Shown: positions 5,702 to 41,296 of the stretch, in pieces
Position numbering within the stretch: the stretch's first letter is position 1
How the letters are laid out: each line of letters begins with the position of its first letter
Assembly (NCBI GenBank): GCA_034666985.1
Contig: JAXDKS010000053.1
Coordinates: 97,980 to 161,979 of the forward strand
Direction of reading: 5' to 3'
From: Acidobacteriota bacterium
Lineage (GTDB): Bacteria; Acidobacteriota; Thermoanaerobaculia; Multivoradales; UBA5704
DNA: 64,000 bases
The notes under the pieces: model-generated
Told to the model about the DNA's origin: nothing
Databases searched by the model: none
The model's input: only the letters and a program-made list of their open reading frames with translations
Program-made: the position numbers and the translations under genes

Positions 5702-5765
5702 TGTCAGCGACAGGGCCCGGACACAGTTGTCACCTCCTGACACACTTCCTGACAGACCTCTGTCA
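5702..5765. promoter_or_regulatory. Cluster of TGTCA/TGACA half-sites (putative operator array)
   Basis: TGTCA at 5702, 5728, 5761 and TGACA at 5738, 5750; perfect TGTCA-N5-TGACA at 5728-5742. Confidence 0.4.
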
Positions 5766-5872
5766 CTTCCGCCCTCTTCTCCCAGGGGAGATCCTCCTGG
5801 CAGCACCCTTGCACTCCTGCCCCCTCAGACAAGTTGATCGTTGAATGATGTGTGAGGAGAGGAGCTGAAAGG

Positions 5873-6418
5873 ATGCTCGACCGTAACGACTTCGAAACGC
5901 GGATCTTTTCCTACTACCTGCCGTTGCAGAGGGTGAGGGCGTTCGTGGACAGAAATCTGTCCGAGCCCATCCCCCTGCGGACGGCGGCCCGGGCCGCGGG
6001 CCTGGAGGAGAAGTACTTCTCGGCCTTCTTCCATCGCAAGACGGGGGTCTGCTTCCGCGACTGGCTGGCGGGGCGCCGGGTGGAGCGGGCGATCGAGATC
6101 CTGAAGCAGCGCGACGACACCATCACCAGCGTTGCGGCCAGCGTCGGCTTCCAGGATCTGCGGACGTTCGAGCGCGCCTTCAAGCGGCTGACCGGGCTCA
6201 CCCCCCGGGAGCTCAAGCGGTCCGTGGCCCCCAGGGTCATGCCTCCACTCCAGGCTCAGGAAGAGGAAGGTGAGCCCCAGGAGCATGACGAGGATCCTGA
6301 TGGGGATCAGGGCGTTGCGTGGCACAGGCCGGGATTGCGAGACCTCGCCCCTCCGGAAACCCTCCCGGCCCTCTTGAAAGCCGCCCCGGCGATCCTACGC
6401 CTGCCGATGCCGCTCTGA
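5873..6418 (+). CDS. AraC-family regulator (DNA-binding domain only)
   Basis: YFSAFFHRKTG...ITSVAASVGFQDLRTFERAFKRLTGLTP; GAGGAG RBS upstream. Confidence 0.88.
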   Translation: MLDRNDFETRIFSYYLPLQRVRAFVDRNLSEPIPLRTAARAAGLEEKYFSAFFHRKTGVCFRDWLAGRRVERAIEILKQRDDTITSVAASVGFQDLRTFERAFKRLTGLTPRELKRSVAPRVMPPLQAQEEEGEPQEHDEDPDGDQGVAWHRPGLRDLAPPETLPALLKAAPAILRLPMPL

Positions 6419-26760: not shown

Positions 26761-27171
26761 CTACGGATTACGGTCCAGGGCGTCCTGGAGCAGGATCTGA
26801 GCCGCCAGGGCGTCGAGCCGCTCCGGCTGCCGGCGGGGATCGATCCCGGCCTGGCGCAGCCGCTCGGCGGCCTCGACGGTGGTCAGCGCCTCGTCGATCC
26901 GCTCCAGCGGCAGCCCGGTGACCTCGGCGAGCTTGCGGCCGAAGCGCTCGACCCGCTCGGCGGCCGCTCCCCGTTCGCCGTCGAGGCCCACCGGCTCGCC
27001 CAGCACCAGCCGCTCGACCCCCTCGCGGCGGGCGATCTCCGCGATCTGCCGCACGGCCGAGCGGTCGTTGCGGCGCTCCAGGGTGGCGAGCGGCACGGCG
27101 ACCCGGCCGGCCGGGTCCGAGATGGCCAGGCCGATCCTTTTCTCGCCGAAGTCGATGCCCAGGGATCGCAT
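26761..27171 (-). CDS. ruvX: RuvX/YqgF nuclease
   Basis: LGIDFGEKRIGLAISD, DEALTT, DALAAQILLQ. Confidence 0.93.
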   Translation of the reverse strand: MRSLGIDFGEKRIGLAISDPAGRVAVPLATLERRNDRSAVRQIAEIARREGVERLVLGEPVGLDGERGAAAERVERFGRKLAEVTGLPLERIDEALTTVEAAERLRQAGIDPRRQPERLDALAAQILLQDALDRNP

Positions 27172-27287
27172 GGCCGCAGTCCGCCTCGGCGCATTGTACT
27201 CGTTGTCGTGTGCTAGCATCCCCGGGCCTGTCCGCCGGCCGCGCGGGCGGCCTCAGCTCCCCCCAAGACGGCTTCACAGGAGAGGTC

Positions 27288-28469
27288 ATGGACGACGTCG
27301 TAATCTTGAGCGCGGTGCGCACGCCGATCGGAACCTTCCAGGGTGCGCTCTCGGGCCTTCCGGCGCACGCCCTCGGGGCGCGCGCCATTGCCGCCGCCAT
27401 CGAGCGGGCGGCTCTCACCCCTCAGGACGTCCAGCAGGTCAACATGGGTTGCGTGCTCACCGCTGGCCAGGGGCAGGCCCCGGCCCGCCAGGCGGCTCTC
27501 GGCGCCGGCTGCCCGGTCGCGACCGGCGCCATCACCCTCAACAAGGTCTGCGGCTCGGGCATGCGGGCGGCGATGATCGCCGCCAACGACCTGCGCTGTG
27601 GCGACTATAAATACGTGGTGGCCGGGGGCATGGAGAGCATGAGCCAGACCCCCTACCTGGCCGCCGGCGCCCGCGATGGGCTGCGGCTGGGCCACGGCAA
27701 GCTCCTCGACTCGCTGATCCACGATGGCCTGTGGGACCCCTACAACGACCTCCACATGGGCAGTTGCGCCGAGACCTGCGCCGTGGATTATCAATTCGGC
27801 CGCGAGGAGCAGGACGCCTACTCGGTGGAGAGCTACCGCCGCTCCCGCGAGGCCACCGAGAAGGGGCTGTTCGCCGAGGAGATCGTCCCTGTCCAGATCC
27901 CCCAGAAGAAGGGCGGCCCGGTGGCGGTGGACCGCGACGAGGAGCCGTTCAAGTCCGACCTGTCGCGCATCGGCTCGCTGCGCCCGGCCTTCCAGAAGGA
28001 CGGCACCGTCACCGCCGGCAACGCCAGCAAGATCAACGACGGCGCCGCCGCTCTGGTGCTCACCACCGCCGCCGAGGCCGCGCGCCGGGGCCTGAAGCCC
28101 CTCGCCCGCATCATCGCCCACTCCTCGATCGCCCAGAAGCCGGAGCAGTTCACCACCGCGCCGGGCGGCGCCGTGCGGGCGGTGCTGGAGCGGGCCGGCC
28201 TCAAGGCCGCCGACGTCGACCTGTGGGAGGTCAACGAGGCCTTCGCCGTGGTGGCCATGGCCTTCCTGCGCGACCTCGAGCTGTCCGCCGACCGGGTCAA
28301 CGTCCGCGGCGGCGCCGTCTCGCTCGGGCACCCCATCGGCGCCTCGGGAGCGCGCATCCTGGTCACCCTGCTGCACGCTCTGCGCGAGCGCGGCGGCCGT
28401 CTCGGCTGCGCCGCCATCTGCATCGGCGGCGGCGAGGCTACCGCGATGATCGTCGAGCGGATAGACTAG
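27288..28469 (+). CDS. Acetyl-CoA C-acetyltransferase (thiolase)
   Basis: NKVCGSG, NEAFA, GHPIGASG, CIGGG. Confidence 0.95.
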   Translation: MDDVVILSAVRTPIGTFQGALSGLPAHALGARAIAAAIERAALTPQDVQQVNMGCVLTAGQGQAPARQAALGAGCPVATGAITLNKVCGSGMRAAMIAANDLRCGDYKYVVAGGMESMSQTPYLAAGARDGLRLGHGKLLDSLIHDGLWDPYNDLHMGSCAETCAVDYQFGREEQDAYSVESYRRSREATEKGLFAEEIVPVQIPQKKGGPVAVDRDEEPFKSDLSRIGSLRPAFQKDGTVTAGNASKINDGAAALVLTTAAEAARRGLKPLARIIAHSSIAQKPEQFTTAPGGAVRAVLERAGLKAADVDLWEVNEAFAVVAMAFLRDLELSADRVNVRGGAVSLGHPIGASGARILVTLLHALRERGGRLGCAAICIGGGEATAMIVERID

Positions 28470-28479
28470 CCGCCGCCTC

Positions 28480-30861
28480 ATGCACGGAAAACGCCCCACT
28501 CCGGCCCTCCTGCTGGCGATCGTCCTGAGTCTGCCCGCGGCAGCCCAGACGACACCTCCCCCCGCGGCACCCGCGGCCATACCGCCGGAGCTGCAGCCCC
28601 AGGGACCCATCCAGCCGGTGGCGCCGACGCCGGGGAACCAGCCGACGCCCGGCACGCCGCAGACCCCGCCCTCGCCGGCCCCGGGAGCTCCGGGAGCCGC
28701 GCCCACGCCCGTCCCGGCAACGCCCGCTCCTCCGGCCGGACCGCCGGGCGCGGGGCCCGACCGGCTCGACTTCCAGCTCAAGTTCACCGGCCACGGCGGC
28801 GGCAGCGCGGCCGGCAGCGCCACCAGCCTGGAATACAAGCGCGAGGACCTCGCCGTCCTCACCGGCGGGGTGCAGATCCGCTACCAGGACATCGACCTCA
28901 AGGCCGACCAGGCCGAGATCGACCTCAAGACCAAGCTGGTCACCGCCAAGGGCAGCGTCATCATCGACCAGGGCCCCCGCCGGCTGACGGGCGATACCGC
29001 CACCTTCGACCTCGACACCAAGACCGGCAAGCTGATCAACGCCGGCGGCCAGGTCGCCCCCGACTATTATTTCAAGGGCGCCGAGGTGGAGAAGACGGGC
29101 CCCGACACCTACGTGGTGCGTGACGGCACCTTCACCTCCTGCAGCCAGCCGGTGCCGGACTGGAGCTTCCGCCTCAAGGAGGCGCGGATCGAGGTCGAGG
29201 GCTACGCCCACGTCAAGAGCGCCTCGATGCGGGCGAAGAAGCTGCCGGTCTTCTACACCCCCTACATCGTCTGGCCGGTGAAGAGCGAGCGCTCCTCGGG
29301 CTTCCTGATTCCCAACGTCGGCTACTCGGACCGCCGCGGCGCCTCGCTCGGCCTCGCCTACTTCCAGACCCTGGGCCGCAGCTACGACACCACGTTCCAC
29401 GCCGACTTCTTCACCCGCGACTTCCTCGGTCTGGGCGACGAATTCCGCTACCACCCCACCGCCGGCACGCGTGGCGATCTGCTGACCTACTTCGTGCGCG
29501 ACCCCGAGGTCGACCAGTGGCGCTGGAAGGTGGAGCTGAACCACACTACGGACGACCTGCCGCACGGCATGCGCGGCGTCATCCAGTATCAGGACTTCTC
29601 GGATTTCAACTTCTTCCGCGACTTCGAGCGTAGCTTCGACCGCAACACCCTGCGGTTCATCGACAGCCGGGCGTTCGTCACCGGCAACTGGGGCCCGCAC
29701 CTGTTCAACCTGCTGCTCAACAGCCGCGAGACGTTCATCAACCAAGCCGACACGGTCGTCCAGCGCAAGCTCCCCGAACTCGAGTACCGGCTGCGCCAGA
29801 CCCGCGTCGGCAGGACGCCGTTCTACCTGGAGCTCGACAGCTCGGTCGACTACCTCGACATCGCCCGGCCCAACAGCTACAGCGGCCAGTACGGGCGCTT
29901 CGACCTCTTCCCGCAGGTCACTCTGCCGGTGCGTACGGTCCCCTGGCTCAACCTCTCGGTGACGGGCGGCGAGCGGCTCACTTGGTACGGCGACTCCCTG
30001 AACGCCAATCAGACGGCCTTCACCGGTAACAGCCTGACGCGCACCTTCCCGGTGGCCAGCGCCCAGATCGTGGGTCCGTCGTTCTCGAAGATCTTCGCCG
30101 GCACCCTCGGCGGCTACAAGCTCAAGCACGTCATCGAGCCGCGCTTCACCTACGCCTATCAGGGGGCCTTCGACGACCGGCAGAACATCCCCCTGTTCGA
30201 CGAGGTCGACAACACCCCCCGCTCCGCCAACTCCGGACGGATCGCCCTCGACAACCGCATCCTCGCCAAGCCCAACACCGAAACTGGAAGCTCCCGCGAG
30301 GTCTTCCTCTTCGAGCTCGCCCGCAACTACAGCTTCGACGCCACCCAGCCCTTGCAGCTCTCCATCGACCGCCTGACGACGACGACCGCCGGCCCGCTCG
30401 AGGCGCTGCTGCGCTTCAACCCCGCGGACAAGATCAGCCTCAAGATCGAGGCCACCTACGACACCCTGTTCAAGGGGCTCTCCTCGACGAGCCTGACGGG
30501 CAACTACGGCTGGGGCCTGGCGAACTACGTGGGCGCCACCTGGTTCACCACCTCCCGCCCGGAGACCGGCCGGTCACTCGCCAACCAGGTGCGTTTCAAC
30601 GGCGGCTTCGGCATTCCCTCCTGGGGCCTGCGCCTGGAAGGGCAGATCAACTACGACTTCGAGCAGCAGCTCCTGCAGAGCGAGACCCTGATCGCCAACT
30701 ATCTCTCCCAGTGCTACGGTCTGCGCGTCGAGCTGCGGAAGTTCCAGAGCGCCACGGGGGCGCTGGGCGTGCAGGACCAGGAGATCCGTTTCTCCCTGAC
30801 GCTGAAGAACGTCGGCACCTTCCTCGACCTCACCAGCCGCACCTCGCAGAATCAGCCGTGA
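28480..30861 (+). CDS. lptD: LPS assembly protein LptD
   Basis: Signal peptide, OstA-like N-terminal domain with FTSC, RSSGFLIP, beta-barrel, QCYG near the C-terminus. Confidence 0.85.
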   Translation: MHGKRPTPALLLAIVLSLPAAAQTTPPPAAPAAIPPELQPQGPIQPVAPTPGNQPTPGTPQTPPSPAPGAPGAAPTPVPATPAPPAGPPGAGPDRLDFQLKFTGHGGGSAAGSATSLEYKREDLAVLTGGVQIRYQDIDLKADQAEIDLKTKLVTAKGSVIIDQGPRRLTGDTATFDLDTKTGKLINAGGQVAPDYYFKGAEVEKTGPDTYVVRDGTFTSCSQPVPDWSFRLKEARIEVEGYAHVKSASMRAKKLPVFYTPYIVWPVKSERSSGFLIPNVGYSDRRGASLGLAYFQTLGRSYDTTFHADFFTRDFLGLGDEFRYHPTAGTRGDLLTYFVRDPEVDQWRWKVELNHTTDDLPHGMRGVIQYQDFSDFNFFRDFERSFDRNTLRFIDSRAFVTGNWGPHLFNLLLNSRETFINQADTVVQRKLPELEYRLRQTRVGRTPFYLELDSSVDYLDIARPNSYSGQYGRFDLFPQVTLPVRTVPWLNLSVTGGERLTWYGDSLNANQTAFTGNSLTRTFPVASAQIVGPSFSKIFAGTLGGYKLKHVIEPRFTYAYQGAFDDRQNIPLFDEVDNTPRSANSGRIALDNRILAKPNTETGSSREVFLFELARNYSFDATQPLQLSIDRLTTTTAGPLEALLRFNPADKISLKIEATYDTLFKGLSSTSLTGNYGWGLANYVGATWFTTSRPETGRSLANQVRFNGGFGIPSWGLRLEGQINYDFEQQLLQSETLIANYLSQCYGLRVELRKFQSATGALGVQDQEIRFSLTLKNVGTFLDLTSRTSQNQP

Positions 30862-30895
30862 GAATCAGCCGGGATTGCGCGCCACCGGAGATCCG

Positions 30896-31972
30896 ATGAA
30901 GGGGTTGATCCTGTCTGGAGGCAAGGGGACGCGGCTGCGCCCCCTCACCCACACCTCGGCCAAGCAGCTCGTGCCGGTCGCCAACAAGCCGGTGCTCTTC
31001 TATGCCATCGAGTCGATCGTGGCGGCGGGCATCACCGAGATCGGCATCATCGTCGGCGACACCCGGCGGGAGATCAAGGCCGCGGTGGGCGACGGCTCCC
31101 GCTTCGGCGCCCAGGTGACCTACATCGAGCAGGAGGCGCCCCTGGGCCTCGCCCACGCCGTGCTGATCGCCGAGCCCTTCCTGGCCGGCGCCTCCTTCGT
31201 CATGTACCTGGGCGACAACCTGATCGCCGGCGGCATCACCTCCCTGGTGGAGGAGTTCCGTGACCTCGGCTGCAACTCGGAGATCCTGCTCGCCGAGGTG
31301 CCCAACCCCGAGCAGTTCGGGGTGGCGGAGCTGACCGCCGAGGGGAAGGTCCACCGGCTGGTGGAGAAGCCGCCCGAGCCGCGCAGCAATCTCGCTTTGG
31401 TTGGCGTCTACATGTTCGACGCGTCGATCTTCGAATCGGTCCAGCGCATCAAGCCCTCGCAGCGCGGCGAGCTCGAGATCACCGACGCCATTCAGGACCT
31501 GATCGACCGCGGCCTCGACGTCCACCCCCACATCGTCCGCGGCTGGTGGAAGGATACCGGCAAGCTGGAGGACATGCTGGAGGCCAACCGCATCGTCCTC
31601 GAGAGCCTGGAGGTGCCGCGCGGCGCCAACCTCGGGGAGGTCGGCAAGGGCAGCCGCATCGAGGGGCGGGTGCAGCTCGGAGAAGGGGTGGAGATCGTCG
31701 ACTCGCTGGTGCGCGGGCCGGTGGTGATCGGCGACGGTGCCCGCCTGGAGCACGCCTTTGTGGGGCCCTACACCTCGATCGGCGAGCGCTGCACCCTGGT
31801 GCGCTGCGAGATGGAGAACTCCATCGTCCTCGCCGACTCCGAGATCCGGGACGTGCCGCTGCGCATCGACGGCTCGCTGATCGGCCGCAACGTGCGCATC
31901 GTCCGGACCGATCAGAAGCCCAAGGCCTACCGCTTCATGGTGGGGGACAACTCGGAGGTCGGGATCTCCTAG
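30896..31972 (+). CDS. rmlA: Glucose-1-phosphate thymidylyltransferase (long form)
   Basis: GGKGTRLRPLT, KQLVPVANKP, RGELEITD, WKDTG. Confidence 0.92.
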   Translation: MKGLILSGGKGTRLRPLTHTSAKQLVPVANKPVLFYAIESIVAAGITEIGIIVGDTRREIKAAVGDGSRFGAQVTYIEQEAPLGLAHAVLIAEPFLAGASFVMYLGDNLIAGGITSLVEEFRDLGCNSEILLAEVPNPEQFGVAELTAEGKVHRLVEKPPEPRSNLALVGVYMFDASIFESVQRIKPSQRGELEITDAIQDLIDRGLDVHPHIVRGWWKDTGKLEDMLEANRIVLESLEVPRGANLGEVGKGSRIEGRVQLGEGVEIVDSLVRGPVVIGDGARLEHAFVGPYTSIGERCTLVRCEMENSIVLADSEIRDVPLRIDGSLIGRNVRIVRTDQKPKAYRFMVGDNSEVGIS

Positions 31973-32866
31973 ATGCGCTGCCTGGTCTTCGGCGGGACGG
32001 GCATGCTGGGCCAGGCGGTAATCGCGGAGGCGAGGTCCCGCGGCTGGGCCGCGCTCGGGCTCTCTCACGTTCAGGCCGACGTCACCGACCGCGAGCGGCT
32101 GCTCGGCTGGGCCGACGCCTTCCGTCCCGAGGTCGTGGTCAACTGCGCCGCCCACACCAGAGTGGATGCCTGCGAGACGGAGGCGGAGCGGGCCTTCGCC
32201 ATCAACGGCGACGCCGTGGCGAACGCCGCCGCAGTGGCCGAGAGAGCGGGCGCGCGGCTGGTCCACGTCTCCACCGACTACGTCTTTGATGGAGCGGGCC
32301 GCGAGCCCTATCTTGAGGAAGCGCCCACGGCCCCCCTCTCCGTCTACGGCCGCAGCAAGCTCGGGGGCGAGGCCCACGCCTTGGCCTGCGAGCGCGGCCT
32401 GGTGGTGCGGACAAGCTGGCTCTTCGGCCCCGGCGGCCCCAACTTCGTCGCCACCATGGTGGGCCTGATCGAGGCCGGCCGCGTGCCCCTGCGGGTGGTG
32501 CGCGACCAGGAGGGGTGCCCCACCTACGCCCCGTTCCTGGCCCGGGCCCTGCTCGACCTCGCCCGTCTCGGGGCCACCGGCGTCGTTCACTATCGCAATC
32601 GGGAGCCCGTCTCCTGGTACGCTTTCGCCGTCGAGATCGCCCGCCTGTGGTCGGGACAGCCGGGAGCGGTCGAAGTGGTGCCCATTACCACGACCGACTA
32701 TCCCCGCCCCGCCCGGCGCCCGGCCTGGTCGGTGCTGGACGTGACGCGCTTCGAGGGGCTGGCTGGCCGGCGGGTGGAGCCCTGGGAATGTGGACTGGTC
32801 GAAACGCTGGACCGGCTGCGCGAGTCGCGGTCTCCGGGACATCTGCGAAAGGGGAGGAGTCAATGA
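31973..32866 (+). CDS. rmlD: dTDP-4-dehydrorhamnose reductase
   Basis: GGTGMLG, STDYVFDG, YGRSKLGGE, PARRP. Confidence 0.92.
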   Translation: MRCLVFGGTGMLGQAVIAEARSRGWAALGLSHVQADVTDRERLLGWADAFRPEVVVNCAAHTRVDACETEAERAFAINGDAVANAAAVAERAGARLVHVSTDYVFDGAGREPYLEEAPTAPLSVYGRSKLGGEAHALACERGLVVRTSWLFGPGGPNFVATMVGLIEAGRVPLRVVRDQEGCPTYAPFLARALLDLARLGATGVVHYRNREPVSWYAFAVEIARLWSGQPGAVEVVPITTTDYPRPARRPAWSVLDVTRFEGLAGRRVEPWECGLVETLDRLRESRSPGHLRKGRSQ

Positions 32867-33846
32867 GAGCACTGATCACCGGAATCACCGGCTTCGCCGG
32901 ATCCCACCTGGCGGAATACATCCTGGCGGAGCAGCCGGGGGTCGAGGTCTTCGGCACCTTCCGGTGGCGTAGCCGCATGGACAACGTCGAACACCTCGAC
33001 GGCCGCATCCGGCTGGTCGAGGCCGACCTGCGCGACTACACCTCGATGCACCAGGCCCTGAACGTCTCGCGGCCGGACGTCATCTTCCATCTCGCGGCCC
33101 AGAGCTTCGTGCCGTCGAGCTGGAACGCGCCCAGCGACACGATGGTCACCAACGTCACCGGGCAGACCCATCTCTTCGAGGCCATCCGCGCCCTGAAGCT
33201 CGATCCGGTGGTGCAGATCGCCTGCTCCAGCGAGCAGTACGGCCTCGTCCTCCCCGGCGAGACGCCGATCAAGGAGACCAACCCGCTGCGGCCGCTGTCC
33301 CCCTACGCCGTCTCCAAGGTGGCCCAGGACTATCTTGGCTACCAGTATTTCCAGAGCTACGGCCTCAAGGCCGTGCGCACCCGGGGCTTCAACCACACCG
33401 GGCCGCGCCGCGGGCAGGTCTTCGTCACCTCCAACTTCTGCAGCCAGGTGGCGGCCATCGAGCTCGGGCTCCAGGAGCCGGTGATCCACGTGGGCAACAT
33501 GGAGGCCATCCGCGACTTCACCGACGTGCGCGACATGGTGCGCGCCTACTGGCTGGCGGTGACCAAGGCCAAGCCCGGCGAGGTCTACAACATCGCCACC
33601 GGCCACGGCATCCACATCCGCGAGATGCTCGACCTCGTCCTCTCCTTCTCCCGGGTCGAGGTGCGGACGGAGGTCGATCCGAATCGCCTGCGCCCCTCGG
33701 ACGTGGAGATCCTGATCGGCGACAGTTCGAAGTTCCGCGCCGACACGGGCTGGGAGCCGCGCATCCCCTTCGAGCAGACGGTGCGCGACCTGCTCGACTA
33801 CTGGCGCAAGGTGCTCGCCGCGCGCAAGGCACGGCTCCAGGGATAG
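32863..33846 (+). CDS. GDP-mannose 4,6-dehydratase-like SDR
   Basis: GITGFAG, HLAAQSFV, SSEQYG, SPYAVSK, FNHTGPRR. Confidence 0.85.
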   Translation: MRALITGITGFAGSHLAEYILAEQPGVEVFGTFRWRSRMDNVEHLDGRIRLVEADLRDYTSMHQALNVSRPDVIFHLAAQSFVPSSWNAPSDTMVTNVTGQTHLFEAIRALKLDPVVQIACSSEQYGLVLPGETPIKETNPLRPLSPYAVSKVAQDYLGYQYFQSYGLKAVRTRGFNHTGPRRGQVFVTSNFCSQVAAIELGLQEPVIHVGNMEAIRDFTDVRDMVRAYWLAVTKAKPGEVYNIATGHGIHIREMLDLVLSFSRVEVRTEVDPNRLRPSDVEILIGDSSKFRADTGWEPRIPFEQTVRDLLDYWRKVLAARKARLQG

Positions 33847-33862
33847 AATTCTTCAGAATCCC

Positions 33863-34762
33863 ATGCACGTCTTCATCACCGGCATCGGCGGCTTCGTGGC
33901 CTCGCGGCTCGTGCGACATCTGACCGGCCGGGGGGAGCGGGTGAGCGGCACGTACATCGGCGCGCGGCCGGATTTCCCTGGCGTCGACCTCCACGAGGTG
34001 GACCTGCTGGACCGGGACGGCCTGAAGCGCGCCGTCTGCGCAGCCTCGCCGGACGCGATCGTGAACCTCGCGGGCCTCTCCCACATCGGCGAGTCCTGGG
34101 CCTGGGAGAAGATGGCCGACTATTTCTGGGTCAACGTCGTGGGGACCGAGAACGTGCTCGCCGCGGCGTCGGGCCGGCCGGTGGTGATCGCCTCCAGCGC
34201 CGACGTCTATGGCACGGTCCCCCGCGAAGAGCAGCCGATCCCCGAGGACCGCCGCATCGCGCCGCAGACCCCCTATGCCCTGACCAAGGCCGCGGCCGAG
34301 CGGCTGGCGGTGGGTGCCAACGCCGTGATCGTGCGCTCGTTCAACCTGATCGGTCCGGAGCAGGCCCCGAAGTTCGCTCTGCCCTCCTGGGCCGCCCAAC
34401 TCGCCGCCATCCAGCGCGGCGAACGGGGGCCAGTGCTCGAGGTCGGCGATCTCTCGACGGCGCGCGACTTCGTCCACGTCGACGACGGCGCCGCCGCCTA
34501 CCGCCTGCTGGCCGAGAAGGGGAGCCCGGGGACCGTCTACAATCTGGCCAGCGGCAAGGCCGTCCAGATGGGGCACGCCCTCGACCGGCTCCTCGCGATC
34601 TCGGGCGTCGCGGTCGAGGTGAAGGAAGGGGCCTTCCCTTCCCGTCCCTTCGACATCCCCTACCTCGCCGGCGACGCGAGCCGCCTGCGGGCCCTGGGAT
34701 GGAAGCCGGAGCGCACGCTGGACGACGCCCTGACGGACCTGTGGAGGGACGCTCGAGCATGA
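33863..34762 (+). CDS. GDP-4-keto-6-deoxy-mannose reductase (Rmd)-like extended SDR
   Basis: GIGGFVA, SSADVYG, TPYALTK, FNLIGPEQ. Confidence 0.75.
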   Translation: MHVFITGIGGFVASRLVRHLTGRGERVSGTYIGARPDFPGVDLHEVDLLDRDGLKRAVCAASPDAIVNLAGLSHIGESWAWEKMADYFWVNVVGTENVLAAASGRPVVIASSADVYGTVPREEQPIPEDRRIAPQTPYALTKAAAERLAVGANAVIVRSFNLIGPEQAPKFALPSWAAQLAAIQRGERGPVLEVGDLSTARDFVHVDDGAAAYRLLAEKGSPGTVYNLASGKAVQMGHALDRLLAISGVAVEVKEGAFPSRPFDIPYLAGDASRLRALGWKPERTLDDALTDLWRDARA

Positions 34763-35760
34763 AAGTCCTCGTTACCGGTGGCACCGGCTTCCTCGGTCGC
34801 CGCGTCGTCTCCGAGCTGGCGCCCCGGCACTCGCTGCGGCTGCTGGTGCGCCGGGGCTCGTCCCGCGAGCGCTTCCCGGCCGGCGTCGAATTCGCCGAGG
34901 GGGACGTCGTCGATCGCGAGAGCCTGACGCGGGCCGTCGCCGGCTGCGACGCCGTGGTGCACGCGGCGGCGCTGGTGAAGATCCTGGCGCCCCGCGAGCA
35001 GTTCGACCGCGTCAACGTCGGAGGGCTGGAGAACGTGCTGGCCGCGGCGGAATCCGCGGGGACCGTGGAGCGGATGGTCTACGTCTCCAGCTTCATGGCC
35101 CTCGGCCCCACCGAAGGCGGACCGGGGGGCGTGCTCGACGAGAGCGCCGAGCCTCGCGACCGGGTTTGGATTAACGACTACGAGCGCACCAAGGCCCTCT
35201 CCGACCGACGGGCCCGCCAAGCCGCAGCCGCGGGCGCGCCCCTCGACGTCGTCTACCCCGGCGTCATCTACGGTCCGGGCGAGCTGACCGAGGGGAACAT
35301 CGTGGTGCGCCACGTCCTGGACCTCGTGAAAGGGCGCCTGCCCGCCCTCCTGGGGAAGCCCGAGCGGCGGTGGAACTACGTCTACGTGGACGACGTCGCC
35401 CGCGGCGTGACCCAGGTCCTCGAGAGTGGGGGCCCGGCGGGGCGGCGGTACGTGCTGGGCGGTGAGAACGTGACGCAGGGCGACTTCTACGCCACGGTCG
35501 GCCGGCTCTTCGGCGCCAAGATCCCATCGCTGCGCCTGCCCGACGCGGTGGCCAAGGCGGCCGGCGGCCTCCAGAAGGCGTGGGCCCAACTGCGCGGTAC
35601 CACCCCACAGCTCACCCCCGATCTTGTGGAGGTCTACCGCCACGACTGGGCGTTCAGCTCGGGCAAGGCGGAGAAGGAGCTGGGATACCGCTGGCGTACC
35701 CTGGCCGAGGGCCTGGGCTCGACCGCCGCCTGGCTGCGGGAGAGCGGGCAGATCCCGTGA
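34759..35760 (+). CDS. Extended SDR of the HpnA / plant farnesol dehydrogenase type
   Basis: TGGTGFLG, HAAALV, VNVGGL, SSFMALG, YERTK, YPGVIYGPG. Confidence 0.8.
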   Translation: MKVLVTGGTGFLGRRVVSELAPRHSLRLLVRRGSSRERFPAGVEFAEGDVVDRESLTRAVAGCDAVVHAAALVKILAPREQFDRVNVGGLENVLAAAESAGTVERMVYVSSFMALGPTEGGPGGVLDESAEPRDRVWINDYERTKALSDRRARQAAAAGAPLDVVYPGVIYGPGELTEGNIVVRHVLDLVKGRLPALLGKPERRWNYVYVDDVARGVTQVLESGGPAGRRYVLGGENVTQGDFYATVGRLFGAKIPSLRLPDAVAKAAGGLQKAWAQLRGTTPQLTPDLVEVYRHDWAFSSGKAEKELGYRWRTLAEGLGSTAAWLRESGQIP

Positions 35761-37112
35761 GCGACTTCACGCGGAGCGAGCTGGCGCGCAAGGCGACCCA
35801 CATGGGGGTGGGGCTGATCGCCTTCTCCCTCCGCTTCCTGGGTCCCCTCTGGTCGGCCGTGATCGCCCTCTGCGCCCTGGGCTTCAACCTCTACCTGCTG
35901 CCGCGGATCGGTGGCCGGCACCTGTGGCGGCCGGCGGAGCTGGAGGCCGGCGGCTCGCTGGGCATCGTCCTCTACCCGCTGGCCGTACTGCTGCTGATCC
36001 TCGTCTTCTGGAATCGCCTGGAGGTGGCGGCGGCGGCCTGGGGGATCCTCGCCTTCGGCGACGGCATGGCCTCGGTCGCGGGCATGACCCTCGGCCGGGC
36101 CAAGCTCCCCTGGAACCCGCGGAAGAGCTGGGTGGGGAGCCTCGCCTACGTGGTCTGCGGCGCCCTGGCCGCGGCCATGCTCCTGGTGTGGACGGCGCCC
36201 GTCCAGGGCCGCTCTTACAGCTTGGCTTTCGCCCTGGCCGCCGGTTTCGCGACCGCCCTGCTCGCCGCCGCCCTGGAGTCGCTGCCTCAAGGCTTGGACG
36301 ACAACCTCGGCGTCCCCCTCGTCTCCGGCCTGTTCCTGCTCGGACTGGTGCTGACCCAGGGACATTGGGGCGCCTTCCTGGCCGATCCAGGCCTGCCGGC
36401 GCGTCTGCTGCTGGCAGTGCTGGTCAACGCCGCCCTCGCCGGGGCCGCCTACGCCGCGCGCACGGTCGATCTCTCCGGCGTGGTTGCCGGTTTCGTAGTG
36501 GGCTTCCTCATCTATGCTTTCTACGACTGGCGGGGCTACCTGCTGCTGCTGACCTTCTTCGTCATCGGCAGCGCCTGCACCAGATTCGGCTACCGCAAGA
36601 AGGCCGCCGCGAAGCTGGCCCAGGAGAAGGGGGGCCGGCGGGGGGCCCGCCACGCTCTGGCGAACGCCGGCGTGGCCACGGCCTGCGCCCTGTTTGCAGC
36701 CTTGACCGGCCACCCCGTGCTCTTCGGCCTCGCCTTCGCCGGGGCCTTCGCCACCGCCGCCGCCGACACCGCGTCGAGCGAGATCGGCCAGCTCCTCGGC
36801 CGCCGCACCTTCCTCATCACTACCTTCCGCCCGGTGCCGCGGGGCACTGAAGGGGCCGTCTCCCTGGAGGGGACGCTGGCGGGCGTGATCGCCTCGCTGA
36901 TCCTCGCCGTCCTCGGCGCCTCCCGCGGGCTCTACCCCTGGGCTGGCGTGCTGGCCGTGGTGGTGGCAGCATTCGTGGGCACGACGTTCGAGAGCGTGGT
37001 GGGGGCGGCGCTCGAAAAGCGGCAGCTCCTCGACAACGAAGCGCTCAACTTCCTGAACACCCTGGTGGGAGCGCTCGCCGCCGCGGCGTTCGCTCCCTGG
37101 ATCCTGCACTAG
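35757..37112 (+). CDS. Fusion of a CTP-dependent prenol (phytol/dolichol) kinase-like domain and DUF92
   Basis: N-half: ELARKATH, FGDGMASVAG, KSWVGS, DDNL. C-half: ANAGVA, ADTASSEIG, GAVSLEGTLAG. GTG start overlaps the upstream stop. Confidence 0.8.
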   Translation: MSDFTRSELARKATHMGVGLIAFSLRFLGPLWSAVIALCALGFNLYLLPRIGGRHLWRPAELEAGGSLGIVLYPLAVLLLILVFWNRLEVAAAAWGILAFGDGMASVAGMTLGRAKLPWNPRKSWVGSLAYVVCGALAAAMLLVWTAPVQGRSYSLAFALAAGFATALLAAALESLPQGLDDNLGVPLVSGLFLLGLVLTQGHWGAFLADPGLPARLLLAVLVNAALAGAAYAARTVDLSGVVAGFVVGFLIYAFYDWRGYLLLLTFFVIGSACTRFGYRKKAAAKLAQEKGGRRGARHALANAGVATACALFAALTGHPVLFGLAFAGAFATAAADTASSEIGQLLGRRTFLITTFRPVPRGTEGAVSLEGTLAGVIASLILAVLGASRGLYPWAGVLAVVVAAFVGTTFESVVGAALEKRQLLDNEALNFLNTLVGALAAAAFAPWILH

Positions 37113-37115
37113 ACC

Positions 37116-38105
37116 ATGGCCTCCAAGCTCTCTCTCTACAGCCAGCTCGCCCGCCCTTTCACCCTGCTGCCGCCGCTGCTGGGCATCGTCTCGGGCGCCG
37201 TCTGCGCCTTCGGCTCGGTGCACAACCCCGACCCGTCGCGCCAGCTCACGATGCCGGTCGTCCTCACCGTGATCCTGGGCTCGGTCTGCGCCAGCCTGAT
37301 GAACGCGGCGTCGAACGCCATCAATCAGATCTACGACCTGGAGATCGACCGCCTCAACAAGCCGAACCGTCCCCTGGTCACCGGGGCGCTCTCGGTGCGT
37401 GAGGCCTGGATCTTCACCTGGATCTTCTACACCCTGGCGCTGATCCCCACCTGGCTCGTGGTGCCGCACCCCTACGACACCCTGGAGCAGAAACTGACGG
37501 CTCCCCTCTCCGAGCACGTGACCTTCTTCATCTACCTGGCGGGGCTGCTCTTCACCTTCGTCTACTCGGCGCCGGAGTTGGGGCGGACCAAGGTCCGGGG
37601 CATGCTCGCCAACCTGACCATTGCCATCCCCCGCGGGGTGCTGCTCAAGGTGGCGGGCTGGGCCATGGTGGCGCACGTGGCCTTCACCGAGCCCTGGTAC
37701 ATCGGCGCGGTCATCGGCTTCTTCCTCATCGGCGCCGCCTCCACCAAGGACTTCGCGGACATGGAAGGGGACCGCGCCGGCGGGTGCAAGACCCTGCCCA
37801 TCCTCTACGGTCCCAGGAAGGCGGCCTGGATCATGGCCCCCTTCTTCGTCTTTCCCTGGCTCCTCCTGCCGCTGGGTGCCCATCTGCGCGATCCGCAGAA
37901 CCCGCAGCACGCCATCCTCACGGGCAACCCTCTGCTGCTGACCATCATGGGCGTCCTCTTCACCCTCTGGGGCCTCTACACGGTCTACCTCCTGGTGCGG
38001 GACCCTGATTCCCTCACCGAGACGGAGAACCATCCGTCCTGGAAGCACATGTATCTGATGATGATGGGGGCGCAGGTGGGGCTGGCGCTGGCTTACATGT
38101 TCTAA
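37116..38105 (+). CDS. UbiA-family prenyltransferase (ChlG/DGGGP-synthase/HPT-type motifs)
   Basis: RPFTL, NQIYDLEIDRLNKPNRPL, KDFADMEGDRAGG. Confidence 0.88.
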   Translation: MASKLSLYSQLARPFTLLPPLLGIVSGAVCAFGSVHNPDPSRQLTMPVVLTVILGSVCASLMNAASNAINQIYDLEIDRLNKPNRPLVTGALSVREAWIFTWIFYTLALIPTWLVVPHPYDTLEQKLTAPLSEHVTFFIYLAGLLFTFVYSAPELGRTKVRGMLANLTIAIPRGVLLKVAGWAMVAHVAFTEPWYIGAVIGFFLIGAASTKDFADMEGDRAGGCKTLPILYGPRKAAWIMAPFFVFPWLLLPLGAHLRDPQNPQHAILTGNPLLLTIMGVLFTLWGLYTVYLLVRDPDSLTETENHPSWKHMYLMMMGAQVGLALAYMF

Positions 38106-38671
38106 GTCGCGCCCGTCAGGCGCCGCGCCACGATCGCCATGTGATGGGCGTTGTGGTAGAGGGTGAAGAAGAGCATCTCGCGCAACGTCAGCTTGCCCAG
38201 GAGGGGGTGGGGAAGGCGCACGCGATCGAGCTCCTTCTCGGACCAGCGCTCCGAGGCGGACGTCCACTCGCTCACCGACCAGCCATAGACGGTGACGATT
38301 TCCTGGCGCCAGGCTTCGAGGTCGGAGGGCAGCGGCTTGTCGGACGGGGCGAACTTGCCCGCCTGGGCGCCGGCCGCGAGCTTGGCGCGATAGTCCTCCC
38401 GGAGCTTCTCGAAGCTTCGCGACGGCGCCGAGGCACCCCCGAAGAGCAGGCGCGGCACCAGCTTCGGCGAGCGGAGCGCCTTCGCCACCGGAAAGTTCGA
38501 CTTCGCGAGATGTCGCACGTGCCACGCCGGCGACCACGACTGACCCTGGGGAGCGAAGAAGACCTCAGTGGAGATCGACGCGAGAAATGGCGTGATCTCC
38601 TCGTGGAGCGCCTCCGCGGCGGCCCGAATCTCGACGCCGGTGCTCGGGTTCCCGGTCTCGAATTGCGGCAT
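38102..38671 (-). CDS. DinB family protein
   Basis: WSPAWHVRHL, PHPLLGKLTLREML, HNAHH. Confidence 0.88.
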   Translation of the reverse strand: MPQFETGNPSTGVEIRAAAEALHEEITPFLASISTEVFFAPQGQSWSPAWHVRHLAKSNFPVAKALRSPKLVPRLLFGGASAPSRSFEKLREDYRAKLAAGAQAGKFAPSDKPLPSDLEAWRQEIVTVYGWSVSEWTSASERWSEKELDRVRLPHPLLGKLTLREMLFFTLYHNAHHMAIVARRLTGAT

Positions 38672-38683
38672 GCGTCAGATTCC

Positions 38684-39166
38684 TCAGGGCAAAGTCGCGG
38701 GACTCGCAGGGGCAGCGGCGGGCCGGCGGGATTCCCGGATGATCAGGAAGGCGGGGATCAGCACCAGCCAGAAGCCCCCTTTCGGGTAGAAGACGAGGGC
38801 CGCCAGGTTCATGATCACGAGCTCCCACCCGATCGCCGCGGGAAGGCGCCTTCCCTGCCCCTCCACCCAGGCGACGAGATGCCCGAGCGTGAACGTCACC
38901 ACTCCCCAGAGCATGAACCAGAAGACCGCCTCCATGTCCGTCCGGGAGGGCACTCGGCCCAGCGCGGAGTCCGCCGTCCCGAGGAAGCCTTCGCGGGCCA
39001 TGCGGGCCAGCGGTCCCCGGGCGACCCAGGCCCCGCCGAGGATGTGGAGGACGCCTGCGAGCATCAACAGGCGCCCGGCCTTCTTCTCGCCGAGCCGCAC
39101 GATGATCAGGAGACCGATCAGGAAGAGCGGTCCCAGAGACAGCCGGACGAGGTCGGCTTCGAGCAC
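38684..39166 (-). CDS. Small membrane protein (DUF6463-like)
   Basis: GVLH, FWFM, P-x-GGFWL motifs. Confidence 0.6.
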   Translation of the reverse strand: MLEADLVRLSLGPLFLIGLLIIVRLGEKKAGRLLMLAGVLHILGGAWVARGPLARMAREGFLGTADSALGRVPSRTDMEAVFWFMLWGVVTFTLGHLVAWVEGQGRRLPAAIGWELVIMNLAALVFYPKGGFWLVLIPAFLIIRESRRPAAAPASPATLP

Positions 39167-39278
39167 GTCTCCAGTCTAGCAGCCGCTTTCAATCCCGCCC
39201 CGCTGAGGCTCGCTTTCACATCTTAGGCGCACCTAACATTCATGAAGGGCGAGCACCTCCAGCCCGGAAAGGAGAGGC

Positions 39279-39872
39279 ATGGACCTGACAGCATCCACTG
39301 TGACACCCATGGCCCGGAGCCACGGCTCGCAGACGTTCCTGGAGCGCCTCAACACCGTCTGGCACGAGCGGGCCCTGCAGGTCTTCACCGTCGTCGTGCT
39401 GGCCCATTGGGCGGAGCACCTGACGCAAGCCTTCCAGATCTACGTCCTCAAATGGCCGGTGCCGCAGTCGCGCGGCGTTCTGGGCCTGTGGTACCCGTGG
39501 CTCATCAAGTCCGAGGTGCTGCACTACGGCTATGCCCTCGTCATGCTGATCGGCCTCTGGGTGCTGCGCCCCGGGTTCGTCGGCACGGCGCGGCGGTGGT
39601 GGACGGTGGCGCTCGTCATCCAGTTCTGGCACCACATCGAGCATGCGCTACTGCAGGGGCAGGCCCTCGTCGGCCAGAACCTGTTCAACTCGCCGGTGCC
39701 GACCAGCATCGCCCAGCTCTGGATCCCCCGCGTCGAGCTGCACCTGATCTACAACACGATCGTCTTCATCCCCATGGTGATCGCCATGTACTACCACCTG
39801 TTCCCGCCGGCGGGAGAAGCGGCCCACATGAAATGCACCTGCGCCTTCCAGCCGCGCCTCGTCGCGGCCTAG
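39279..39872 (+). CDS. His-rich four-TM membrane protein
   Basis: HWAEH, LHY, WHHIEH, ELH in TM segments; AGGAGAGG RBS. Confidence 0.75.
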   Translation: MDLTASTVTPMARSHGSQTFLERLNTVWHERALQVFTVVVLAHWAEHLTQAFQIYVLKWPVPQSRGVLGLWYPWLIKSEVLHYGYALVMLIGLWVLRPGFVGTARRWWTVALVIQFWHHIEHALLQGQALVGQNLFNSPVPTSIAQLWIPRVELHLIYNTIVFIPMVIAMYYHLFPPAGEAAHMKCTCAFQPRLVAA

Positions 39873-41296
39873 ACCTGCTGTCCTCGGCTGGGGTGGGGCG
39901 CTTCCTGCGCTGGCGCCACGCGCGAACGGCGATGCAACTCCCGCTGTTCGCCGTGGCTGTGGCCATGGTCGTCCACGGATTCCTGGGCCCCCAGCTCGCG
40001 CCCCGCAATCTCGCCACCCTCCTCACCTGGGTGCACTACCGGGGCGCGCTCGTCCTGGTCCTCCTTGCGGGTGGCAACCTGTTCTGCATGGCCTGCCCCT
40101 TCATGCTCCCGCGCACGCTGGCCCGCCGCTTTTTCAAGCCCGTCCTGCGCTGGCCCCGCCGGCTGCGCTCGAAGTGGCTCGCGCTGGGGCTCTTCGTGCT
40201 CGTCCTCTATGCCTACGAGCTGTTCGACCTGTGGAGCTCGCCGTGGTGGACGGCCTGGCTCATCGTCGCCTATTTCGCCACCGCCCTCGCCGTTGACTCG
40301 CTGTTCAAGGATGCCTCGTTCTGCAAGTGGGTCTGCCCCCTCGGCCAGTTCAACTTCGTGGCGTCCACGGTCTCACCCCTGGAGGTGCGCGTCCGCGACG
40401 CCGACGCTTGCGTCACGTGCACCACGCACGACTGCATCCAGGGGACGCGCGATCCGGCCGATCCCTCCGTCGTCCTTCAGCAGGGCTGTGAGCTGGGCCT
40501 CTTCCTACCGAAGAAGACGGGCAACATGGACTGCACGTTCTGCCTCGACTGCGTCCACGCCTGCCCACACGACAACGTCGTGCTGACGACGCGCGTGCCG
40601 GCGAGCGAGCTGTGGGAAGATCCGCGCCGCTCCGGAATCGGGCTCTTCTCGCGGCGGAAGGACCTGGCGGCGCTGGCGGTCGTCTTCGCCTTCGGCGCCC
40701 TGGTGAACGCCTTCGGCATGGTGAGCCCGGTCTACGCCGTCGAGGAGTGGCTGGCCCGCTGGATGGGGACGACCCACGAGGCTCCGGTGCTGGGCGTTCT
40801 CTTCCTGCTCCTGCTGGTGGTGGAGCCCATCCTGCTCCTCGGCCTGGCCTCCTGGCTGACGCGCCGGGGCGCGGGCACGCGGGAGCCTCTGGTGCCCCTG
40901 ACCAACCGCTTCGCCTATGCCTTCATCCCCCTCGGCTTCGGCATCTGGCTGGCCCACTACACCTTCCATTTCGTCACCGGCTTGTGGACTTTCGTGCCGG
41001 TGACGCAGGAGGCTCTCGCCGCGGCCGGCCTGCCCTGGCTCGGGGCGCCGAGCTGGGGGCTCACCGGCCTCTCTCCAGGGCTGGTCCACCCCCTCGAGCT
41101 GGGTTTCCTCAGCTTGGGCCTGCTCGGCTCCCTGCTGGTGGCCTACCGGATCGCCGAGCGCGATTATCCGGTCCGCGCGGCGCGGGCGTTCGCGCCGTGG
41201 GCCGGCCTCTTCCTCCTCCTCGCGGCCGCCGCCATCTGGCTCCTCTACCAGCCCATGCAGATGCGCGGCACGATCATGGGAAGCATGGGAGGCTGA
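39833..41296 (+). CDS. Polytopic 4Fe-4S membrane protein (NapH/CcoG/FesM-like)
   Basis: FCMACP, FCKWVCP, CVTCTTHDC, CTFCLDCVHACP; start uncertain. Confidence 0.8.
   Translation: MHLRLPAAPRRGLDLLSSAGVGRFLRWRHARTAMQLPLFAVAVAMVVHGFLGPQLAPRNLATLLTWVHYRGALVLVLLAGGNLFCMACPFMLPRTLARRFFKPVLRWPRRLRSKWLALGLFVLVLYAYELFDLWSSPWWTAWLIVAYFATALAVDSLFKDASFCKWVCPLGQFNFVASTVSPLEVRVRDADACVTCTTHDCIQGTRDPADPSVVLQQGCELGLFLPKKTGNMDCTFCLDCVHACPHDNVVLTTRVPASELWEDPRRSGIGLFSRRKDLAALAVVFAFGALVNAFGMVSPVYAVEEWLARWMGTTHEAPVLGVLFLLLLVVEPILLLGLASWLTRRGAGTREPLVPLTNRFAYAFIPLGFGIWLAHYTFHFVTGLWTFVPVTQEALAAAGLPWLGAPSWGLTGLSPGLVHPLELGFLSLGLLGSLLVAYRIAERDYPVRAARAFAPWAGLFLLLAAAAIWLLYQPMQMRGTIMGSMGG

Follow-up and report, generated by a model that had tools for sequence, protein, structure and literature searches.

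A candidate operon for prenol activation and prenyl transfer in Acidobacteriota

Within a 64,000-nucleotide stretch of DNA from a member of the Acidobacteriota (the window; G+C content about 69%), an operon that begins with an lptD-like gene ends in three genes encoding an extended short-chain dehydrogenase/reductase (SDR1, gene 1), a fusion protein with a C-terminal DUF92 domain (gene 2) and a UbiA-family prenyltransferase (gene 3). Across the phylum, the inheritance of the last two is asymmetric: the fusion occurs without the UbiA protein, but the UbiA protein almost never occurs without the fusion, nor alongside DUF92 alone. The domain identities of these proteins, their conserved catalytic residues, their co-inheritance and their gene order are all borne out by the analysis. 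We consider it about an even prospect that the three genes form a module in which a prenyl alcohol would be converted to its monophosphate and then its diphosphate, the latter being used for O-prenylation of an acceptor, probably in the envelope. An initial annotation of the window had described the three genes as tightly coupled. Direct reading confirmed their coordinates, the GTGA overlap between the SDR1 and fusion genes, and the 3-nt gap by which the UbiA gene starts past the TAG of the fusion.

Co-inheritance of the fusion and UbiA genes

One draw of 301 Acidobacteriota genomes, each at least 85% complete, was searched with a profile for each protein. We scored a fusion match as strong at E<=1e-65, a UbiA orthologue at E<=1e-40 (all of them at least 348 bits) and an SDR1 orthologue at E<=1e-85. 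A strong fusion match was present in 109 of the 301 genomes and a UbiA orthologue in 99. Crucially for the argument, the UbiA orthologue was found in 97 of the 109 fusion genomes compared with 2 of the 192 others, and one of these two has a split fusion. Two of the genomes counted, G062 and G183, are unpublished and carry both fusion and UbiA; leaving them out, the core figure becomes 95 of 107. Middling matches to the fusion profile (E 1e-65 to 1e-30) occurred in 24 genomes, only one of which had a UbiA orthologue, and the listed ranges of these matches covered the DUF92 part only.

This pattern is what would be expected if the donor used by the UbiA protein could arise only from a free alcohol. 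Indeed, since the cell makes ordinary prenyl diphosphates de novo and the UbiA protein nevertheless depends on the putative kinases, the donor would most simply pass through the free alcohol, as in the supply of phytyl diphosphate in plants. SDR1 behaved differently. Of the 60 genomes with an SDR1 orthologue, 58 also have the fusion, and the best match to the SDR1 profile in a genome negative for the fusion profile scored 273 bits. SDR1 is therefore a non-obligatory member of the module, present in about half of the fusion genomes. The initial annotation had named conservation of the trio as a test, and the result supports it: the fusion and UbiA genes are very tightly coupled (97/109 versus 2/192), and SDR1 is present in 58 of the 109 fusion genomes.

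The results suggest a pathway in which SDR1, where present, would probably act as an NADPH-dependent reductase that makes the alcohol from the aldehyde, or that tunes the balance between the two. The N-terminal domain of the fusion, which is Sec59/VTE5-like, would then use cytidine triphosphate (CTP) to convert the prenol to a prenyl monophosphate in the membrane, and the DUF92/VTE6-like C-terminal domain would use CTP to convert the monophosphate to the diphosphate. Finally, the adjacent UbiA protein would take the prenyl diphosphate as donor and attach its chain to an acceptor. A two-domain fusion is what might be expected of consecutive steps, and the UbiA protein would be expected to O-prenylate because the enzymes nearest to it transfer the prenyl chain of a C20 diphosphate onto hydroxyl or carboxyl groups. 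Taken together, its place near digeranylgeranylglyceryl phosphate (DGGGP) synthase and chlorophyll synthase, the lipid type and probable NADPH dependence of SDR1, and the asymmetric inheritance support the order aldehyde, alcohol, monophosphate, diphosphate, transfer. What we infer comprises the activities of all the enzymes, a chain of C15 or C20, which way the SDR step runs (prenal to prenol), what accepts the chain, where the product is located, and any use of scavenged plant phytol.

Domains, conserved residues and nearest relatives of the three proteins

The gene 3 product matches PF01040 at 116.6 bits (cut-off 34.2). Both of its Asp-rich motifs, N70-x3-D74-x3-D78 and D212-x2-D215-x3-D219, are invariant in 34 orthologues, and a C-terminal ENHPSWxHMY motif and an invariant cysteine (C224) recur in all or nearly all of these 34 acidobacterial proteins, which form the set compared. 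Its best NCBIfam model is PRK12884, named 'prenyltransferase' (112.5 bits, cut-off 269). The chlorophyll and bacteriochlorophyll synthase (ChlG/BchG) models NF005742, TIGR01476 and TIGR02056 gave 100.3, 79 and 70.2 bits (cut-offs 313, 212 and 436), the DGGGP synthase models NF009521 and NF009522 gave 75.3 and 70.9 bits (296 and 353), and the homogentisate phytyltransferase (HPT) model NF009525 gave 61.5 bits (226), so that all of these scores fall short of their cut-offs. A profile of the 34 orthologues found DGGGP synthase of M. jannaschii (6m31, 85.5 bits) and chlorophyll a synthase (9sau, 76.8 bits) as the nearest solved chains. Both the model scores and the solved chains support the earlier assignment of this protein to the ChlG/DGGGP synthase/HPT type. 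Judged by its sequence, it is a UbiA protein nearest to archaeal DGGGP synthase and chlorophyll synthase, far under the cut-off of every curated model.

The genome (7.5 Mb, 97% complete) encodes four further UbiA paralogues: heme O synthase, MqnP, one that lies above the cut-off for decaprenylphosphoryl-5-phosphoribose (DPPR) synthase, and one of unassigned type. The DPPR-type paralogue is encoded outside the window (G000:C8:41578-42297, L004) and scores 300.7 bits against a cut-off of 234; the DPPR pathway is usually linked to Actinomycetota. Among other isoprenoid genes, the genome contains four polyprenyl diphosphate synthases. PcrB/geranylgeranylglyceryl phosphate (GGGP) synthase (PF01884) had no match in this 97%-complete genome, and no geranylgeranyl reductase scored above cut-off there. 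The best 80 loci from a search with the UbiA alignment all belong to Thermoanaerobaculia or other Acidobacteriota. The closest relatives in the databases are metagenome-assembled genomes named Thermoanaerobaculia or Thermoanaerobaculaceae.

The gene 2 product matches DUF92 (PF01940) at 203.2 bits (cut-off 27.5) over residues 223-439 only, and scores 204.7 bits with TIGR00297, about one bit under the cut-off of 205.85. The D337, E342 and D426-N427 residues of this half are invariant or nearly so in the aligned homologues. For the N-terminal domain, a search of 1.84 billion cluster representatives yielded 1911 clusters at E<=0.001, comprising fused forms of ~450 amino acids (aa) and stand-alone forms of ~200 aa. 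Alignments of 29 stand-alone and 60 fused homologues showed that R11, H15, G101-D102, G109, K123, G127, E174 and D182-N183 are invariant or nearly so. We take the CTP-site pattern of Sec59, VTE5 and FOLK to be D-x2-A-x3-G-x3-G ... K-[ST]-x-x-G followed by a second acidic motif, and the N-terminal domain fits it at G101, D102, G109, K123, G127, D182 and N183. Each half of the fusion thus has an invariant Asp pair, D102/D182 and D337/D426. The motifs listed for gene 2 in the initial annotation (RKATH, GDG, KSWVGS and DDN) are all present in the translation.

Several further results bear on the identity of the N-terminal domain. Three of the 29 stand-alone homologues weakly match PF01148 (best E 0.0059), 16% of the members of an Atlas cluster that lies at a score of 0.91 to the domain carry PF01148, and one fused homologue bears the JGI name 'dolichol kinase/uncharacterized membrane protein'. 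Additionally, the two halves of the fusion align to each other in a profile-profile comparison (hhalign E 1.8e-4, probability 49%), with a shared core of D-x3-[AS]-x3-G-x3-G ... S-x-x-G ... ES. The view of gene 2 as a two-domain fusion with DUF92 therefore holds, its Sec59/VTE5-like part being supported by motifs, weak fold matches, the JGI name and a published HHpred comparison of archaeal fusions (see below). When both proposed domains were checked with hidden Markov models, DUF92 was recovered at 203.2 bits and the kinase domain was not, the N-terminal part having neither a Pfam nor an NCBIfam match.

The AlphaFold model of the whole fusion had a pLDDT of 95.8 and a pTM of 0.93. Foldseek found nothing in the PDB for it at E<=0.001, its top rows being unrelated transporters. 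An exhaustive structural search placed the CDP-archaeol synthase CarS (5guf) first, on residues 311-448 (Z 8.6, root-mean-square deviation (rmsd) 3.7, 120 residues), and CdsA (4q2e) second (Z 6.9); both are membrane enzymes that depend on CTP. The N-terminal domain modelled alone (pLDDT 92.8) again gave CarS 5guf first (Z 6.1, rmsd 3.5, 112 residues, 22% identity) and then CdsA (Z 5.6), values in the chance range for helical proteins, and its first Foldseek row was a weak match to CdsA 4q2g (E 0.076). These models are consistent with a CdsA/CarS-like fold of the N-terminal domain, without proving it. A complex prediction for the fusion with the UbiA protein scored 0.00, which is no answer and speaks neither for nor against binding.

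In one family of genomes (f36, for example G058, G075 and G091), the fusion profile matched in two pieces (~6-89 and ~88-442) in 18 of the 22 genomes with a match. The genomes with such split matches have one long open frame of ~510-580 aa, which suggests that the first helices are separated from the remainder of the N-terminal domain by an insertion. Of the 22, 20 have a UbiA orthologue.

SDR1 is an extended SDR with a GGTGFLG nucleotide motif and a YERTK catalytic pair, of which Y141 and K145 are invariant in 34 aligned orthologues. The same is true of R31, an Arg after strand beta-2. By a general rule for SDRs an Arg in this position is a sign of NADPH, and R31 thus suggests NADPH use and a reductive direction. 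The motifs that the initial annotation had listed for gene 1 are present in the translation: HAAALV, VNVGGL, SSFMALG, YERTK, YPGVIYGPGELT, GRLP and RHDW...KAEKELGY. Among curated models the best was HpnA (TIGR03466, 209.9 bits, below the cut-off of 367.65), followed by the sterol demethylase SDR SdmB (114 bits) and OleD (108 bits), whereas the sugar-nucleotide models RmlB and GalE gave only 45 and 26 bits. The product of the neighbouring gene, SDR0, showed the opposite pattern, scoring about 92-96 bits with each of LegB, GalE and RmlB, all under cut-off. By these scores SDR1 does not side with nucleotide-sugar epimerases, a grouping that the initial annotation had named as fatal to its proposal, and the scores support its identification as a lipid-type extended SDR, unlike the adjacent sugar-nucleotide enzymes.

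The nearest solved chain to SDR1 is 3wj7, a 'putative oxidoreductase' (142 bits). Its top ESM Atlas cluster (332 aa; feature score 0.99, TM 0.95) is 80% Eukaryota, mostly Streptophyta; the second is bacterial and auto-named 'dihydroflavonol-4-reductase/farnesol dehydrogenase family', and clusters named 'hopanoid-associated sugar epimerase' follow. The proposed likeness to plant farnesol dehydrogenase (FLDH) therefore agrees with the Atlas clusters, while membership of the FLDH family is a lead from those clusters and not an alignment. A hopanoid role of SDR1 in this genome is unlikely, because squalene-hopene cyclase (PF13243) had no match in the 97%-complete sequence. The data allow a module that makes non-isoprenoid alkyl ethers, with fatty-acyl and thioester reductase models giving SDR1 82-85 bits; we set this reading aside on the donor chemistry of UbiA, which requires an allylic or otherwise stabilised diphosphate. 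Separately, the SDR1 orthologue matches of G123, G179 and G133 each contain one in-frame TGA. Two of these genomes are in genus g96, and sister genomes have none; the TGA could reflect a pseudogene, a sequencing error or recoding.

Gene order, rival explanations and related systems

Of the 30 best-scoring loci (one of which, L065, comes from the unpublished G183), 26 have SDR1 immediately 5' of the fusion and 20 have the UbiA gene within 1.5 kb, convergent in four of them. Of 20 lower-scoring loci viewed with 7-kb flanks, 13 have an adjacent UbiA gene, 9 an adjacent SDR1 and 12 a same-strand lptD upstream. A same-strand lptD likewise lies upstream in 14 of 20 best-scoring loci viewed with longer flanks and in all 12 of the same-order loci described below, giving 38 of the 52 loci with enough flank. 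The lptD/nucleotide-sugar context noted in the initial annotation is therefore both real and conserved. Seen from the UbiA gene, the fusion is directly upstream in 50 of the best 80 loci (or 48 of 71, counting those that leave sufficient room) and not directly upstream in 30. At the genome level, the coupling of the two persists where the genes are unlinked. Dozens of genomes that belong to other families of the phylum share the arrangement, which is therefore far beyond chance.

At 12 loci from other genera of the window's order, lptD and sugar genes precede the fusion in every case (with rmlA and/or rmlD absent in two). One of these loci has DUF92 only; the UbiA gene follows in 7 of the 12 and SDR1 is present in 3. 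Orthologue searches of the same-order genomes failed to find SDR1 in five (best match 37% identity); the UbiA gene was on another contig in one (G033) and was not found in four. SDR1 and then the fusion come straight after lptD at L071, L082, L190 and L198, with no sugar genes between. The genes 3' of UbiA are not conserved, being leuS, methylmalonyl-CoA mutase and others that vary by locus. The genome has no second gene of the LptD family, since PF04453 and PF19838 each match it once, both at the lptD of the operon. That the module keeps its position after the only lptD and the 6-deoxyhexose genes, with which it would be co-transcribed, points to an envelope product, most likely a lipid.

Other arrangements were seen at single loci or in small groups. 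In G033, where the UbiA gene is unlinked from the fusion (L136, identical to L030; 2524-6993), it ends a same-strand run of YmdB, GT2, PagL (lipid A 3-O-deacylase) and polyprenyl diphosphate synthase genes, which is another lipid A/envelope association. A polyprenyl diphosphate synthase gene directly upstream of UbiA was found in this genome only among the loci examined, and is an anecdote rather than a pattern. At L085 (8392-10440) and L087 (9295-11274), from two distant families, a gene for a 660-683 aa type I phosphodiesterase/nucleotide pyrophosphatase (PF01663) lies immediately upstream of the module in place of lptD; its product could be a hydrolase that frees an alcohol or a phosphate ester. 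At L150, L156 and L161 (~3300-6000) the unlinked UbiA gene is often divergent beside genes for NYN-domain and FAD_binding_2 (aspartate oxidase/fumarate reductase-like) proteins, and at L156 a GT-C (PMT_2) gene converges on it.

A number of points weigh against the proposed prenol pathway. The thresholds for strong fusion matches and SDR1 orthologues were set after the score distributions had been viewed, and, because related genomes are not independent, the co-occurrence figures make independent events seem more numerous than they are. Twelve of the 109 fusion genomes lack the UbiA protein, implying that the fusion also serves other ends, and SDR1 is absent from 51 of the 109. With four polyprenyl diphosphate synthases, the cell would not need a salvage route for ordinary farnesyl or geranylgeranyl diphosphate. 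Residues 1-222 of the fusion had no Pfam or NCBIfam match even at E<=10, and a sequence profile of this domain found 0 matches among PDB chains at E<=10. Moreover, since its fold matches are weak and in the chance range for helical bundles, a cytidylyltransferase reaction in place of the kinase reaction is possible. Finally, a shared lptD operon need not mean a shared function.

The alternative that survives best, although we judge it unlikely, is that the module serves a glycan carrier lipid. The N-terminal domain would be a polyprenol kinase of the undecaprenol or dolichol type that makes the polyprenyl monophosphate carrier, and a DPPR-synthase-like UbiA would load a sugar or phosphoryl donor onto it. 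SDR1 would act on the lipid-linked sugar in the manner of DprE2, or else convert polyprenol, polyprenal and dolichol into one another, and the product would be a lipid-linked sugar donor for lipopolysaccharide (LPS) or other envelope glycans. Such a system would resemble the DPPR pathway of Actinomycetota, in which a UbiA-type enzyme and the SDR DprE2 make an envelope glycolipid donor on polyprenyl phosphate. It would also suit the position of the module beside lptD and dTDP-6-deoxyhexose genes across the phylum, the annotation of the N-terminal domain family as Sec59 dolichol kinase, the GT-C (PMT_2) gene by UbiA at one locus and the PagL and GT2 genes at another, and the link of archaeal DUF92 genes to uppS, for which a role in isoprenoid or glycosylation lipids has been proposed (PMC5898192). 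The UbiA protein itself argues otherwise: it scores 21.6 bits on the decaprenyl-phosphate phosphoribosyltransferase model NF008977 (cut-off 234) compared with 100-112 bits on the ChlG model and PRK12884, and the solved DPPR synthase chain scores only 20.5 bits with its profile compared with 85.5 for DGGGP synthase. Being so remote (about 21 bits), it is a poorer candidate than the separate UbiA paralogue of this genome, which exceeds the DPPR-synthase cut-off (300.7 versus 234). The fused DUF92 domain would, in addition, be left without a task, and the supply of undecaprenyl phosphate normally needs no kinase.

It is more doubtful still that the genes belong to no single pathway, with SDR1 a further 4-keto reductase or epimerase of the upstream sugar branch, the fusion and the UbiA protein a separate housekeeping pair, and their order that of an old packed operon. 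The frequent absence of SDR1 from fusion genomes would then be unsurprising, as would the position of the fusion directly after a sugar epimerase in most families of the window's order. The second and third solved matches of SDR1 are indeed named sugar epimerase/dehydratase (69.8 and 63.5 bits), and the HpnA family name itself says 'sugar epimerase'. Nevertheless, the model scores favour lipid-type SDRs by a wide margin, SDR1 orthologues are nearly confined to fusion genomes (58 of 60), and SDR1 stays directly 5' of the fusion at the four loci that lack sugar genes after lptD. A cytidylyltransferase role, in which the N-terminal domain is not a kinase, the fusion makes a CDP-activated isoprenoid alcohol or lipid as CarS does, and the UbiA protein acts earlier to build that lipid, is very improbable: CarS 5guf followed by CdsA is the top structural match of both halves, and DGGGP synthase, the nearest solved relative of the UbiA protein, precedes CarS in archaea, but the Z scores are low, a GGGP synthase of the PcrB family was not found in the 97%-complete genome, and the characterised DUF92 member VTE6 is described as a kinase in a review (PMC9782597).

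The proposed prenol pathway also has clear parallels. In plants VTE5 and FOLK are prenol (phytol) kinases and VTE6, predicted from COG1836, is a prenyl (phytyl)-phosphate kinase, according to a review (PMC9782597). The acidobacterial module shares with this plant and cyanobacterial salvage route the DUF92 family (203 bits), the two-step scheme by which an alcohol would become first a monophosphate and then a diphosphate, and a product that feeds UbiA-family transferases (HPT, ChlG and MenA in phototrophs); among 14 control genomes, DUF92 occurred only in Synechococcus and three archaea. It differs in that both steps are fused in one polypeptide, within an lptD operon and in a non-photosynthetic phylum, that its UbiA protein is not ChlG, HPT or MenA, and that its N-terminal domain is too diverged for Pfam. 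A published analysis matched DUF92/COG1836 to pfam01148 with an HHpred probability of 97.6% (PMC5898192, section 3.4), and the N-terminal domain of several archaeal DUF92 proteins, for example Mbar_A3310, to Sec59 dolichol kinase at 99.85% (PMC5898192). Two catalytic Asp residues are kept in both domains of these archaeal fusions, and a kinase step in isoprenoid metabolism was predicted for them (PMC5898192). By that description, the archaeal fusions (Mbar_A3310; arCOG02245) have the same architecture, Asp pair per domain and predicted step as the acidobacterial protein, but their context is uppS and not SDR1, an orphan UbiA and lptD. The architecture of the kinase fusion is thus already in print, for archaea.

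Comparisons for the other two proteins are looser. DGGGP synthase (6m31) and ChlG (9sau) share with the UbiA protein both Asp-rich motifs and the general type of O-prenylation with a C20 diphosphate, whereas the acidobacterial protein misses all curated cut-offs widely and its genome yielded no GGGP synthase. SDR1 is an extended SDR of the same fold as FLDH and HpnA, with HpnA as its best NCBIfam model and orthology to FLDH a lead from the Atlas clusters. It differs from HpnA in falling under the cut-off (368 bits) and in a genome where no squalene-hopene cyclase was found.

Full-text literature searches found no published account of the acidobacterial module. Such searches did not turn up, in print, the setting in bacteria that are not phototrophs, the tight co-inheritance of the fusion with an orphan clade of UbiA proteins, an FLDH/HpnA-like protein as a frequent partner, or the conserved embedding in the lptD operon. 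The primary VTE6 papers reportedly may already contain prokaryotic clustering or fusion of COG1836 with phytol kinase. The operon is a compact bacterial candidate for both prenol phosphorylation steps, with a dedicated transferase that is virtually never found without the putative kinases, and such an operon makes the genes of bacterial prenol salvage, the role of DUF92/Sec59-like fusions and the product of the orphan UbiA testable questions.

A bolder version of this pathway, which we put forward only as a long shot, is that many Acidobacteriota make a hitherto undetected isoprenoid envelope lipid. It could carry a C20 prenyl or phytyl chain, bound as an ether or ester to an acceptor that is a glycerol, a sugar or related to LPS, and would be formed independently of archaeal GGGP synthase. 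The free alcohol, from SDR1 or from phytol of plant litter, would be obligatorily re-activated by the fusion and transferred by the new UbiA clade, and the lptD operon would couple expression to the biogenesis of the outer membrane. In that case the operon would also open bacterial prenol salvage outside phototrophs to genetics for the first time. Few soil bacteria are as abundant as Acidobacteriota, whose membrane lipids serve as environmental proxies, so an unrecognised envelope lipid would matter. If true, such a lipid would be relevant to envelope biology and lipid biogeochemistry, and would bear on how sharp the divide between bacterial and archaeal lipid chemistry is.

The operon and its surroundings

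The operon comprises eight open reading frames (ORFs) on the plus strand (28480-38105), with spacings of 13, 0, -4, 16, -4, -4 and 3 nt (Table 1). The ATG of the 4,6-dehydratase-like gene overlaps the stop of rmlD, and the ATG of SDR1 overlaps the stop of SDR0 (ATGA). For gene 2 the start giving 451 aa is preferred to that of the 510-aa ORF, since homologues have lengths of 445-460 aa and their alignment begins near residue 4. The lptD-like product scores 136.7 bits with the NCBIfam LptD model, under its cut-off of 683.

Table 1. Features of the lptD operon, in window coordinates.
Feature	Position	Strand	Evidence
lptD-like outer-membrane LPS-assembly gene, first gene of the operon	28480..30861	+	LptD_2 39.2 bits (cut-off 22.5), LptD_N 25.3 (20.4)
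rmlA long form, glucose-1-phosphate thymidylyltransferase	30875..31972	+	TIGR01208 456.4 bits, cut-off 320
rmlD, dTDP-4-dehydrorhamnose reductase	31973..32866	+	TIGR01214 285.2 bits, cut-off 224
NDP-hexose 4,6-dehydratase-like extended SDR	32863..33846	+	Pfam GDP_Man_Dehyd 287.6 bits; below every NCBIfam equivalog cut-off
SDR0, sugar-nucleotide epimerase/reductase-like SDR	33863..34762	+	Epimerase 145 bits, GDP_Man_Dehyd 143 bits
SDR1, HpnA/FLDH-like extended SDR, 333 aa	34759..35760	+	Pfam Epimerase 101.9 bits; TIGR03466 HpnA 209.9 bits
Putative kinase fusion (gene 2), whole, 451 aa	35757..37112	+	N-terminal domain + DUF92
Fusion N-terminal domain, residues about 1-222, Sec59/VTE5-like CTP-transferase-fold, putative prenol kinase	35757..36422	+	Conserved residues, weak fold matches
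Fusion C-terminal domain, DUF92 (VTE6 family), putative prenyl-phosphate kinase	36423..37112	+	PF01940 203.2 bits
Orphan UbiA-family prenyltransferase, ChlG/DGGGP synthase type, 329 aa	37116..38105	+	PF01040 116.6 bits, both Asp-rich motifs

A scan of positions 27000-40000 found no promoter-like site, and no terminator-like sites above shuffled expectation. Part of the stretch is contained in 20 sequencing runs, mostly of soil metagenomes, the best of which shares 0.37 of its words; no RNA run is listed among them. A 967-aa antisense frame (35634-38537, minus strand) spans genes 2 and 3; frames of this kind are typical artefacts in DNA with 70% G+C, and it is no evidence of a gene. Downstream, a DinB-family gene (PF12867, 48.6 bits; 38102-38671, minus strand) converges on the end of the UbiA gene. 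It is overlapped by a 361-aa ORF (38141-39223, plus strand) with no family match, which is probably a spurious high-GC frame. A 684-aa ORF follows at 39242-41296; it has a weak NapH-like ferredoxin match and is kept in close relatives only.

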